This document shows, in pieces, positions 11,513 to 17,582 of a stretch of 17,970 nt of DNA (the first letter of the stretch is position 1; each line of letters starts with the position of its first letter). The notes beneath the pieces were generated by a model, which saw only the letters and a list, made by a program, of their open reading frames with translations, made no database searches and was not told where the DNA came from. The translations under genes and the position numbers were made by a program. The stretch lies in UHGV virus genome UHGV-0122840. One strand, given 5' to 3'. This DNA comes from a virus.

Positions 11513-12124
11513 ATGCGAATAAAAAAACCAATTGATCACGATGAGCTTCTGTCAACATTATCATATGACTCAGAAACAGGAATATTTAAATGGCTAAAAA
11601 CAAATTCAGTAGTAAGAGTAAAAGGTAGTATTGCTGGAGGTGTTAGTGGTGGTTATATATGCATTAGCATAAATAATGTTTTGTATTATGCGCATAGGCT
11701 TGCTTGGTTCTATGTATACAAAAAATGGCCTCCTAAGTTTATTGATCATGTAAATGGGAACAGACTTGACAATAGGATTTCAAATCTAAGACTGGCAACA
11801 GAGGAGCAGAATGCAAGAAACATTGTAGGGAATAGGTTAAACACATCCGGTGCGATTGGAGTGTCTTGGGATAAGACAACTGGCAGGTGGAAGTCTTATG
11901 TTGGTTATAAAAATAAGACAATATCGTTAGGGTATTTCGATAGCAAAGAAGATGCAGCATTCATAGCAGCACTAGCAAGAAAGAAACTATATGGAACTTA
12001 TGCGAGTAAAGCACTTAATTGCGAGCATGAGCTTTTATCTCAATTTAATAATGATGAGGATAAACTTGCGGAATATCTTAAGGAAAAATCTAAAAGGACT
12101 CGAAAGCGTGTTAAAAAAAGATAA
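11513..12124 (+). CDS. HNH homing endonuclease with AP2-type DNA-binding domain (203 aa)
   Basis: HNH motif region HRLAWFYVY...FIDHVNGNRLDNRISNLRLATEEQNARN, then AP2-like GVSWDKTTGRWKSYVGYKNKTISLGYFDSKEDAA. Free-standing between the replication and nin modules. Confidence 0.8.
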   Translation: MRIKKPIDHDELLSTLSYDSETGIFKWLKTNSVVRVKGSIAGGVSGGYICISINNVLYYAHRLAWFYVYKKWPPKFIDHVNGNRLDNRISNLRLATEEQNARNIVGNRLNTSGAIGVSWDKTTGRWKSYVGYKNKTISLGYFDSKEDAAFIAALARKKLYGTYASKALNCEHELLSQFNNDEDKLAEYLKEKSKRTRKRVKKR

Positions 12125-12156
12125 AGGCCTGCTGGTAATCGCAGGCCTTTTTATTT
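12125..12156 (+). terminator. Intrinsic terminator after the first HNH gene (AGGCCTGC ... GCAGGCCT then T-run)
   Basis: Perfect 8-bp stem, 8-nt loop, then TTTTTATTT directly after the stop codon. Confidence 0.65.
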
Positions 12157-15126: not shown

Positions 15127-15775
15127 TGGCAGCAAATACCGAAATATTTGGGTAGTTGGCGATCTGCACGGATGCTACACGAACCTGATGAAAAAACTGG
15201 AGACGATAGGATTCGACACCAAAAAAGACCTGCTTATCTCGGTTGGCGATTTGGTCGATCGCGGTACAGAGAACGTCGAATGCCTGGAATTAATCACATT
15301 CCCCTGGTTCAGAGCTGTACGTGGAAACCATGAGCAAATGATGATTGATGGCTTATCAGAGCGCGGAAACGTCAATCACTGGATGCTTAATGGCGGTGGC
15401 TGGTTCTTTAATCTCGATTACGACAAAGAAATTCTGGCTAAAGCTCTTGCCCATAAAGCAGATGAACTTCCGTTAATCATCGAACTGGTGAGCAAAGATA
15501 AAAAATATGTCATCTGCCACGCCGATTATCCTTGTGACGAATACGAGTTTGGAAAGCCAGTTGATCATCAGCAGGTAATCTGGAACCGAGAACGAATCAG
15601 CAACTCACAAGACGGGATCGTGAAAGAAATTAAAGGCGCGGACACGTTCATCTTTGGTCATACGCCAGCAGTGAAACCGCTCAAATTTGCCAACCAGATG
15701 TATATCGATACCGGCGCAGTGTTCTGCGGAAAGCTCACATTGATTCAGGTACAGGGAGAAGGCGCGTGGGCATAA
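15103..15775 (+). CDS. ninI: NinI serine/threonine protein phosphatase (lambda PPase family), 224 aa
   Basis: Metallophosphatase motifs GDLHGCY, GDLVDRG, GNHE. Start at [12 protein letters not shown] with GGAG Shine-Dalgarno 7 nt upstream; the ORF-track start at 15029 lies inside ninH. Confidence 0.85.
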
Positions 15776-16284
15776 GAGAACTAAACCTCACCAAAGAACA
15801 GCATGAGTGGCTGAATGGCTGGCTTGAACTGTGGGGCGCATGGGTTTATTCAGGTCGTCTGGAAAAGCGCATGAGCAGCGTAATAGCGAAGTTCATGGAG
15901 AGCGTAGAGCCGGGAAGAGTTATGACAAGGCCAATGTGTAATGATGATGATGGAATGTTGATTTCTCAGGTCGTCGATTCCGTCATGTACATTGACAAGA
16001 AAGCCTTTGGCATCCTCCTCAGCTACTACGCTCATGGTTCATCTAAGCGAGCAATTGCATCCTACTATCACGCGACTGCAAAGCCACGCAAGATGTGTGG
16101 ACGTGGTGGCGAGGGATGGAGAAAACCTTCAATGGCAACCTGTAGAAACGAAATTGACGACATCCTGAAAGCGTCGTTATTTGTTTTGTACCAGCCAATG
16201 CAAAATGCTTTCAAAATGCGTAAACGTGTTGAGAAAGTTAAGCATGTTGCTGTTAAAAGCCTTGACATGCAATTATCTATTTAG
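15766..16284 (+). CDS. Late-gene antiterminator Q (172 aa; not lambda-Q type, possibly Q21/Q82-like)
   Basis: Position directly after ninI and immediately upstream of a promoter plus terminator pair. GTG start with GGGAGAAGG Shine-Dalgarno. Assignment is positional; the sequence is not lambda Q. Confidence 0.65.
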
Positions 16285-16291
16285 CCATAAT
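16262..16291 (+). promoter_or_regulatory. PR'-like late promoter (TTGACA, 18 nt, CATAAT) overlapping the 3' end of Q; likely Q-binding/qut region
   Basis: Consensus -35 hexamer and near-consensus -10, with a terminator about 40-65 nt downstream. Confidence 0.5.
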
Positions 16292-16331
16292 ATTCACATA
16301 TGCTGCTGCTTTTGCATTCAGCAACCATCAC

Positions 16332-16358
16332 AAGCCCACCTCCTGTGGGCTTTTTTGC
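16332..16358 (+). terminator. tR'-like intrinsic terminator (AAGCCCAC CUCCU GUGGGCUU then U6)
   Basis: Perfect 8-bp stem, 5-nt loop, then TTTTTT, about 45-65 nt downstream of the candidate PR' -10. Confidence 0.65.
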
Positions 16359-16478
16359 ATTCGCGTGCAATCAAAACAAGAGTCTTAGTGATATGGGCCT
16401 GAGATATGGTGGTGGAAACATCGCTCCGCTCTTGGCTGTCATATCTACGCGAACAGGCTCTATCCCTAAGGTAAAGCG

Positions 16479-16991
16479 ATGAAAGAAATAAAATTAACGC
16501 CAGAAATGGTGCTTTCTGTTGTTGATTACAATCCATCATCAGGCGACTTTCACTGGAGATGGAGGCAGGGGAGAGAGAGGACCACTTTGACATGGAACTC
16601 TCGTTTTGCTTTCAAGAAATGCTCATCAATAAATTCTGATGGGTATTTAATGATTATGATTAATGGTAAAGCATGCCCTGCTCACAGACTGGCATGGTTG
16701 ATTGTTTATGGCACCATGCCCGATGGTTTTATTGATCACATCAACAGGGTAAGAACAGATAACCGGATATCAAATCTTCGTCTTGTCACTCATTCCGAAA
16801 ATATGCAAAACAGGAAAATTCAGAAGAATAATAAATCTGGATACCGTGGCGTGTCTTGGGATGCTAAGTACGGGAAATGGAGAGCAAGAATTAATGCGTC
16901 TGGAAAGTGTATTAACCTTGGATACCATGACACTGCCGAACTTGCCGCTGCGGCTTTTGAGGCAGCCAGAATGAAATATCATACCGTTTAA
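16479..16991 (+). CDS. HNH homing endonuclease with AP2-type domain (170 aa), diverged paralogue of the 11513-12124 gene
   Basis: Shares AHRLAW..VY..P..FIDH.N..R.DNRISNLRL.T..EN and GVSWD...G.W.......I.LGY.D..E.AA with the first HNH gene. AAGGT Shine-Dalgarno. Sits between tR' and the lysis genes. Confidence 0.8.
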   Translation: MKEIKLTPEMVLSVVDYNPSSGDFHWRWRQGRERTTLTWNSRFAFKKCSSINSDGYLMIMINGKACPAHRLAWLIVYGTMPDGFIDHINRVRTDNRISNLRLVTHSENMQNRKIQKNNKSGYRGVSWDAKYGKWRARINASGKCINLGYHDTAELAAAAFEAARMKYHTV

Positions 16992-17000
16992 AGATGTAAG

Positions 17001-17046
17001 CTGCCGTTAGTGACTCTTAAGTTGCAACGGTGGCTTTTTTATTTGC
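17001..17046 (+). terminator. Possible terminator after the second HNH gene (imperfect stem, T6 run)
   Basis: CTGCCGTT ... AACGGTGG stem with two wobble pairs and a long loop, followed by CTTTTTTATTT. Confidence 0.35.
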
Positions 17047-17366
17047 ACAACAGGTAAGAGCATTGAACCCGCAGACCTCGCGGAATTGGTGAAAGGTGCC
17101 GCGCAGTGCTCTTATCGTTGTGGTGAAGCTCAATGGCGAGCTAGCAGATAGGCGATAGTGAAAATACTAGTCATGTAGCTGACCGCCGCGCGTACTGCAA
17201 TCGGCAGCGCACCGATGGAAGCCGGTTCGATTCCGGTCGCCACAATCCAAACTGAGCCGTAGCCACTGGCTATCCTGAACTCATCAGTGATAGTTATGCT
17301 GCGGCCTTCTTTTTTCCCCTTCCCAATATAAGAACTACGCAATCCGTTACTGGCGGAGGCGTTGCT

Positions 17367-17582
17367 ATGAAATCAATGGACAAAATCTCAACTGGCATTG
17401 CCTACGGCACCTCCGCAGGCAGTGCTGGCTACTGGTTTTTACAGTGGCTTGATCAGGTCAGTCCGTCACAGTGGGCTGCGATTGGTGTACTGGGGAGTCT
17501 GGTTCTGGGCTTCCTGACTTATCTGACAAATCTGTACTTCAAAATCAGAGAAGACAAGCGTAAGGCTGCACGGGGAGAGTAA
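17367..17582 (+). CDS. S: Phage-21-type class II holin / pinholin S21 (71 aa) with dual-start motif MKSM
   Basis: Translation [71 protein letters not shown] matches S21 as recalled (two transmembrane domains, Met1 and Met4 starts). GGAGG Shine-Dalgarno. Confidence 0.9.

Follow-up and report, generated by a model that had tools for sequence, protein, structure and literature searches.

In the 17,970-nucleotide stretch of viral DNA UHGV-0122840 (the window, by which the whole stretch is meant), the segment 16262-16356 is very probably the late promoter pR' of a lambdoid prophage with a Q antiterminator of the phage 21/P22 gp23 type, together with its Q-utilisation site (qut) and a promoter-proximal terminator (tR'). 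Such a PR', qut, tR' arrangement had been proposed in a sequence-only reading of the window, and it is supported because its elements are homologous, one by one, to those of phage 21, because a gene of the Q21 family lies immediately upstream, because the same architecture is found in diverged phages and because the putative Q site covaries with the Q protein. The switch is of a known kind, a near-identical promoter being already annotated as pR' in the related phage HK75, and its significance for biology at large is small: the analysis confirms, and precisely places, a textbook Q21-type late switch in a prophage. Worth keeping are the tandem terminators, the second of them canonical, with an HNH cassette between them, the covariation of the Q site and a leader RNA that had not been annotated.

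The probable late promoter and Q-binding site

A consensus promoter scan places TTGACA and CATAAT, 18 nt apart, at 16262-16291 with a match of 11/12, bearing out the earlier proposal of a promoter laid over the last codons of Q. This is the sole site reaching at least 10/12 on either strand of the whole window and the top of 11 promoter-like sites. At the sequence level, a sigma-70 promoter is found at the very 3' end of the Q gene, whose stop codon TAG (16282-16284) falls inside the spacer while the -35 hexamer and the spacer fall within its last codons. The window as a whole is poor in sigma-70-like sites, with 11 as compared with 26.2 +/- 5.1 in shuffles.

In an alignment to phage 21, HK75 and phage L, every element of the window region falls into register, the coordinates of the phage 21 features being those of the curated, literature-based GenBank record OL657228. 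Downstream of the -10 hexamer, the discriminator reads ATTCAC-A as compared with ATTCGC-A in phage 21, whose A is the curated start, and this match points to a start at A16298. The initially transcribed region then carries, from +2 to +7, the -10-like hexamer TATGCT in the register of the phage 21 sigma-dependent pause element (SDPE). This hexamer is invariant in 17 of 17 distinct sequences of the window's leader class (leader A, introduced below), whereas the discriminator varies. Further downstream, a T-N-Y-G motif occupies the register known from lambda PR', from which the consensus is taken (bioRxiv 10.1101/2022.01.24.477500), and a pause would be predicted at about +16/+17.

Regarding the Q protein, it matches the structures 6JNX and 6P18 ('Q protein') in the PDB with an E value of 3e-92 (~1e-92) and is 85% identical to Q21. 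Residues 1-101 are almost identical in the two proteins, and the divergence lies in residues 102-162, which carry the DNA-reading helix and loop. Compared with Q21, the C-terminus has 10 extra residues that code into the promoter, the last ~10 codons spanning the -35 hexamer and the Q-binding element (QBE). The latter consists of two direct-repeat subsites 8 bp apart, located between -35 and -10, the downstream one including the Q stop codon, and both have a C:G pair at the positions (-21 and -13) where such pairs are required for Q action in phage 21 (PMC6606751).

In all 11 loci compared, the Q protein and its site change together. Residue 128 goes with subsite position 2 (R with G, N with T) and residue 95 with position 6 (H or Y with A, R with C). 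Indeed, a helix with ...TCRRE (R128) is found together with subsites TGAGCx and one with ...TCRNE (N128) together with TTAGCC or TTATCy, while H or Y at residue 95 accompanies ...GCA and R accompanies ...GCC. The codons of residues 95 and 128 lie at about 16048-50 and 16147-49, respectively. For the Q21 complex, H95 and R127 are among the base-contacting residues named in the published description (PMC6606751). No other internal evidence speaks as strongly as this covariation for the repeat being the phage's Q-binding element. Moreover, the allele and site series suggests a simple recognition code, in which residue 128 would read position 2 and residue 95 position 6. Such a natural series of Q alleles and binding sites is a useful by-product, since the code can be compared with the Q21-DNA structures.

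Another element was noticed inside Q, on the minus strand. The segment 16059-16091 (TTGCGTGGCTTTGC) fits the CII-box pattern TTGY-N6-TTGY with TAGGAT 13 nt later. At this place the record of phage 21 has the antisense promoter paQ, which depends on CII, and the segment is probably a conserved anti-Q promoter.

The window region is 99% identical to coliphage HK629, and its Q gene and promoter are common to P22-like phages, HK75, CUS-3, Sf6-type phages and phage 21. In HK75, the same 30 bp are annotated as pR' (with Tr'), one base of the upstream Q-binding subsite being different. The 77 IMG/VR loci that have this type of Q all share the promoter except for its upstream subsite, and in them two leader classes follow it: the commoner, leader B, runs from TAGnnGG-TAAGCTGCC... 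into a phage 21-type terminator, and the rarer, leader A, is the window's own. Leader A also stands behind the promoter of phage 21 in its exact form (L008), behind promoters of Hafnia phages and behind two other variants of the Q-binding site. It occurs, too, with its first 26 nt kept, in three diverged phages (L055, L085, L088), which were located independently through an unrelated downstream motif. In the 17 distinct promoter-leader variants, the -35 hexamer, the 8-bp-spaced repeat, the -10 hexamer, the start and TATGCT are all kept and +1 to +26 is almost fixed, while the discriminator, a linker of 8-9 nt and the loop of the terminator vary.

Table 1. Features of the late region and their neighbours in window coordinates; positions relative to the predicted start are signed.
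Feature	Position	Strand	Basis
Q antiterminator gene, 172 aa, Q21/P22-gp23 family	15766-16284	+	Pfam PF06530 (Phage_antitermQ), 1.1e-25
-35 hexamer TTGACA of pR'	16262-16267	+	promoter scan; aligns with curated phage 21 -35; invariant in 77 P22-type loci
Upstream Q-binding subsite AATTATCT; core TTATCT 16273-78; C at -21 = 16277	16271-16278	+	register of phage 21 upstream subsite (QBEu) ATTGAGCA
Downstream Q-binding subsite ATTTAGCC; core TTAGCC 16281-86; C at -13 = 16285	16279-16286	+	register of phage 21 downstream subsite (QBEd) AATGAGCA
-10 hexamer CATAAT	16286-16291	+	promoter scan; aligns with curated phage 21 -10
Predicted start A16298, 7 nt after the -10 hexamer	16298	+	discriminator match to phage 21
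Predicted sigma-dependent pause element TATGCT, -10-like, +2 to +7	16299-16304	+	register of curated phage 21 SDPE TAAGCT(G)
Putative T-N-Y-G pause motif, +14 to +17	16311-16314	+	lambda PR' consensus and register
Predicted 5' hairpin of the short transcript, +4 to +26	16301-16323	+	RNA folds; within the conserved 26-nt block
First intrinsic terminator, tR' of the leader-A allele	stem-loop 16332-16352, T6 16351-16356	+	terminator scan and fold
Pseudoknotted 5' leader of the HNH gene	16355-16478	+	covariance-model alignment
HNH_3 + AP2 endonuclease gene, 170 aa, optional cassette	16479-16991	+	PF13392 3.8e-18, PF00847 1.6e-8
Second intrinsic terminator, ancestral tR' of the phage 21/P22/HK75 lineage	hairpin 16998-17036, T6 17035-17040	+	identity to phage 21 tR' hairpin; fold
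S21-type pinholin, first lysis gene past both terminators	17367-17582	+	Pfam PF04971 1.4e-35

The first terminator, the predicted short RNA and the proposed switch

The perfect hairpin with six U that had been noted shortly after the promoter was recovered as AAGCCCAC-CTCCT-GTGGGCTT, with 8 perfect pairs (5 of them G-C), a 5-nt loop and a fold of -12.5 kcal/mol (z = -3.1). As it spans +35 to +59, a short RNA of 58-60 nt is predicted, and an intrinsic terminator is found within a few tens of nucleotides of the start, ahead of the late genes. The short spacing that the sequence-only reading pointed out is indeed present, but it is the rule in the 21/P22 family and no peculiarity. In relatives, the terminator stem is kept while the loop varies, one stem being compensated (CCCAC/GTGGG to CCCGC/GCGGG) and another showing a G-U change, and the HK629 record likewise annotates this hairpin as a terminator. 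A bidirectional reading of it was rejected, the minus strand having no T-run after the hairpin. In the window at large, terminator-like sites exceed the number in shuffles (37 against 17.9 +/- 4.5), and a strong bidirectional terminator is located at 12123-12150.

Because the terminator loops differ in length, the 9 variants of the short RNA were folded one by one. All fold alike, with a 5' hairpin, a linker and the terminator ending in U5-7, and all have a length of 58-60 nt. The 5' hairpin comes without covariation and its structure remains a predicted one. Short Q-independent RNAs from the late promoters of phage 21 and P22 have been reported (PMC7547250). A search of Rfam gave no genuine match, the P9 hit on the minus strand (18 bits, E 0.88) being merely the terminator hairpin. 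An open reading frame (ORF) of 60 aa at 16300-16482, which starts at +3 and ends in an ATGA over the HNH start, was considered as a leader peptide and rejected: it has no Pfam match, and its frame is broken in relatives, by a stop after 9 codons in Hafnia phage yong1 and after ~35 in L055.

From what is established for this family, the switch would operate as follows. Host sigma-70 RNA polymerase would start at about A16298, sigma region 2 would rebind TATGCT at +2 to +7 and the complex would pause near +16/+17. Without Q, the polymerase would resume and stop at the hairpin and U-run (3' end at 16353-58), an RNA of ~59 nt being freed. Once Q has accumulated, two protomers would bind the direct repeat TTATCT/TTAGCC and be loaded onto the paused polymerase, where Q would form a 'nozzle' at the exit channel that blocks hairpin formation and makes the polymerase resistant to terminators. 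The Q-modified enzyme could then run through both terminators, with the structured leader and the HNH gene that lie between them, into the holin gene and the late operon. Since the + strand shows no further sigma-70-like site in the consensus scan from 16292 to where the holin gene starts (17367), the HNH gene, the holin gene and the later genes should depend on Q.

Several points weigh against this interpretation. The promoter score is by itself non-significant, as first-order Markov simulations of the window give a mean of 0.26 matches of at least 11/12 per window (P ~0.22 for one or more such matches); it is position, strand, register, conservation and homology to an experimentally defined promoter that raise the site above chance. 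The spacer measures 18 nt here as compared with 17 nt in phage 21, and the U-run is short, with 6 U of which two are able to pair with the AA at the base of the stem. While the elements, their register, their conservation and the Q-site covariation are read directly from this DNA and its relatives, the start, the pause, the efficiency of termination, the constitutive activity and the Q dependence, which the sequence-only reading took to be strict, would follow from family membership. In phage BTP1, tRNA genes directly after tR' are highly expressed in lysogens (bioRxiv 10.1101/787010), and some read-through or another promoter may operate in such relatives; this transcriptome paper does not explicitly report a short pR' RNA. 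Finally, the record of HK629, for all its 99% identity, puts a 'putative pR'' downstream of the first terminator, a point taken up below.

Beyond its place in the switch, the ~59-nt RNA might act in trans as a small RNA in lysogens, as StxS of Stx phages does (PMC7547250). We consider this unlikely. Positions +1 to +26 are nearly invariant across phages that differ in Q-binding site, discriminator, linker and terminator, and the predicted shape, a 5' hairpin followed by a single-stranded linker and a terminator with a U-tail, resembles that of Hfq-dependent small RNAs. The block +1 to +26 could have a function of its own. However, pause signals acting at the DNA level (SDPE and T-N-Y-G) lie in it too and might account for most of its conservation. 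The part of the RNA that varies is the single-stranded linker, in which a seed would be looked for, and the RNA matches nothing in Rfam.

It is rather improbable that the first terminator is mainly the upstream gate of a mobile cassette and that the functional tR' is the second terminator, after the HNH gene. A hairpin and T-run stand upstream of the structured leader in 72 of 73 copies, and the second terminator shares its hairpin with the phage 21 tR', both of which would be expected under such a scheme. Yet in four loci (L005, L008, L023 and L035), the same leader A and terminator directly precede the late genes, without structured leader or HNH gene, and there the first-type terminator is the only tR'. 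The two roles are, moreover, not mutually exclusive.

The annotation of HK629 (JQ182735) implies that the first hairpin (terminator 42635-57) merely ends the early unit containing Q and that the true late promoter lies downstream, the 'putative late promoter pR'' at 42745-42750 corresponding to window 16444-16449. This seems very improbable. The annotated hexamer is TCTACG, no sigma-70-like site of at least 9/12 is present there on the + strand, and 16444-49 falls inside an RNA structure that is supported by covariation and is also found far from any Q, for instance after Rz in HK97. The upstream TTGACA...CATAAT is, by contrast, homologous to the proven phage 21 promoter and annotated as pR' in HK75. 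The HK629 feature, lacking consensus support and lying within a conserved RNA structure, is probably misplaced. That the promoter match arose by chance from coding sequence where Q ends, and that the hairpin is an ordinary end-of-gene terminator, can be given hardly any credence: the expected frequency of such matches and the overlap of the hexamers with codons would allow it, but in phage 21 Q ends before the promoter and the same elements stand in the same register, the site covaries with the specificity residues of Q, and the pause element is conserved downstream of the ORF.

Relation to known late switches

The late region of phage 21 (pR'21, QBE, SDPE and tR') has reportedly been studied by Guo, Kainz and Roberts in 1991, and by Yin et al. 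and Shi et al. in 2019. It is with this region that the pR' proposed here shares the order and register of the -35 hexamer, the two subsites spaced by 8 bp, the -10 hexamer, the A start and the -10-like element at +2 to +7. The two differ in their subsites, which read TGAGCA twice in phage 21 and TTATCT/TTAGCC here, a difference matched by the changes H95R and R128N in Q. In addition, the leader of the window diverges from +8 and ends in another terminator, and an HNH cassette precedes its phage 21-type tR'. With gene 23 and P-late of P22 and with pR'-Tr' of HK75, the likeness is closer still upstream: Q is 98% identical, and the promoter and Q-binding element are the same but for one base of the upstream subsite. 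Downstream they part, since in P22 and HK75 the promoter is directly followed by TAG..GG-TAAGCTGCC and the phage 21-type terminator.

Lambda PR', qut and tR', with the 6S RNA, offer the more distant comparison. The proposed logic is alike: a constitutive promoter has its Q site between -35 and -10, the pause element lies at +2 to +7 and T-N-Y-G at +14 to +17, and a short RNA ends at a terminator close by. Unlike the ~59-nt RNA predicted here, the lambda RNA measures 194 nt, and lambda Q belongs to an unrelated protein family. Lambda also needs a -35-like element, and Q21 and lambda Q are without obvious homology (PMC6606751). A lambda-type qut, as characterized by a Q of the lambda family together with a -35-like element, is not what is found in the window, whose Q matches PF06530 and the Q21 structures only. 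The resemblance to lambda qut is, in our view, one of mechanism and not of membership. StxS (PMC7547250) is similar in being a short RNA made in lysogens from a constitutive, Q-regulated late promoter; it comes from another Q and promoter family, and the predicted 59-nt RNA is like it in general shape only.

The HNH cassette and its structured leader

The sequence-only reading had placed a second, weaker terminator after the HNH gene. A hairpin and T6 are indeed found there (16998-17040), before the holin gene, but they are predicted to be the more stable of the two, with a fold of -20.2 kcal/mol (z = -4.4) against -12.5 kcal/mol for the first. Their hairpin is identical in sequence to the curated phage 21 tR' (PMID 1704887 as cited in the record). 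A relic of the pause element, TAAGCTG (16997-17003), precedes it. Homology to P22-like phages and HK75 ends exactly past CATAAT (16291) and restarts at ~16995 with TAAGCTGCCGTTAGTGACTCTTAAGTTGCAACGGTGGCTTTTTT, that is, with the pause-element relic and the terminator hairpin of phage 21, HK75 and P22, and for this reason the second terminator is regarded as the ancestral tR'. About 700 bp now separate it from the promoter, made up of leader A with its terminator, a structured leader of 125 nt and the HNH gene. The first terminator belongs to an alternative leader allele.

Directly past the second terminator, the segment 17047-17300 (mainly 17190-17248) contains a T-arm-like GGTTCGATTCCGG and gives a weak tmRNA/tRNA-like match of 13.4 bits. 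ARAGORN calls no tRNA gene past the second terminator, where only this T-arm-like remnant is seen. In phage 21, phage L and many prophages, tRNA-Asn and tRNA-Thr/Leu genes occupy the spot directly after tR', and 17047-17300 looks like a decayed tRNA region.

Regarding the HNH gene itself, it is separated from Q by a gap of 194 bp and from the pinholin gene by one of 375 bp, a DUF1327 gene following the pinholin. Of 5426 complete E. coli genomes, 39 carry the ~700-bp block and hundreds the empty promoter-to-tR' arrangement. Where it occurs, the block (16292-16996) is 99-100% identical among loci with differing flanks (as compared with HK75 (L003), L008, L023 and L005). Diverged relatives repeat the order Q, promoter, leader A, terminator, structured leader, HNH homologue, terminator and lysis genes; their HNH homologues have visibly diverged in sequence, and the further terminator stands directly after the stop codon. 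In one filled/empty pair, L036 and L072 versus Hafnia phage yong1, the cassette lies between two T-runs flanked by TTTTTGCATT. The HNH gene is thus an optional cassette that sits in the late leader with an intrinsic terminator on either side. The filled/empty polymorphism with TTTTTGCATT repeats in Hafnia-type phages suggests a mobile, homing-type cassette. So clear a polymorphism of an HNH cassette between two terminators is a useful by-product of the analysis.

Between the first terminator and the HNH gene lies a pseudoknotted RNA leader. Its first hairpin (16355-70) has the loop UUCGCG, to which a bulge ACGCGAA (16447-53) is complementary, and an anti-Shine-Dalgarno sequence CUUAG (16384-88) pairs with the Shine-Dalgarno (SD) sequence UAAGG (16467-71) in a long helix. 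From 19 copies a covariance model was built, and with it 99 copies were found, of which 52 are distinct. In the alignment of these 52, 95.4% of the cells are paired and 29 of the 44 pairs show compensatory changes; no shuffle attains these values, and slid controls reach at most 55% paired. For the SD-burying helix in particular, compensatory changes are seen in 13 of 15 pairs. The loop and bulge, whose pairs were kept outside the covariance model, covary in at least 5 classes (UUCGCG, UUCUCG, UUCCCC, UUCUCC and UCGCAU), each with a matching bulge. A second pseudoknot, CAAGAG/CUCUUG, is moderately supported. Readings of the leader segment CGCTCTTGGCTG...ACAG as a sigma-54 site, a LexA box or a boxA were dropped by eye, the spacing being unfit and the bases covarying as RNA pairs.

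Such leaders recur in late operons, both before HNH genes past Q21-type promoters and before KilA-N genes that follow the lysis genes in HK97, HK022, HK75, mEp phages and Klebsiella phages (for instance HK97 AF069529 at about 37537-37674 and L007 at 1453-1589). Whatever the context, the terminator-like hairpin and T-run lie 3-27 nt upstream of the leader in the 72 of 73 distinct copies mentioned above, and because of this position the leader would be transcribed only through terminator read-through. No Rfam family matches 16355-16478, and a literature search found no paper on this leader. A covariation-supported leader that is absent from Rfam and recurrent in many lambdoid and HK97-like phages is a further useful by-product.

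Homing endonuclease genes of T4-type phages (I-TevI, segB, Aeh1 mobE) are preceded by hairpins that sequester the ribosome-binding site (PMC2988022), and the HNH gene of the window likewise sits behind a terminator and an SD-burying helix, its SD being paired in a stable helix. An internal late promoter freeing the ribosome-binding site, as in T4-type leaders, is not found: a consensus scan detects no promoter-like site on the + strand at 16357-16478, and late promoters of the T4 type are not relevant to a lambdoid phage. The window's leader also differs in being a conserved element of ~125-135 nt with a loop-bulge pseudoknot that occurs before KilA-N genes too. Our best guess, by this analogy, is that the leader serves as a translational gate on potentially harmful accessory genes, and the conserved pseudoknotted fold suggests a more specific role. 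Tentatively, with chances that we would put slightly below even, the first terminator might also be the entry gate of a recurrent module consisting of a terminator, an SD-burying pseudoknotted leader and an accessory gene, which codes for an HNH nuclease in the window and for KilA-N in HK97 and HK022. Q antitermination would then be coupled to an RNA-structure gate, and the leader would represent an undescribed class of cis-regulatory phage RNA.

Finally, second and more diverged copies of the leader (27-45 bits) occur within single contigs, at 10612-10739 in L052, 1975-2088 in L214, 7177-7290 in L271 and 6139-6267 in L208. The one in L052 lies ~900 nt upstream of the main copy, where an ORF of 201 aa is called.

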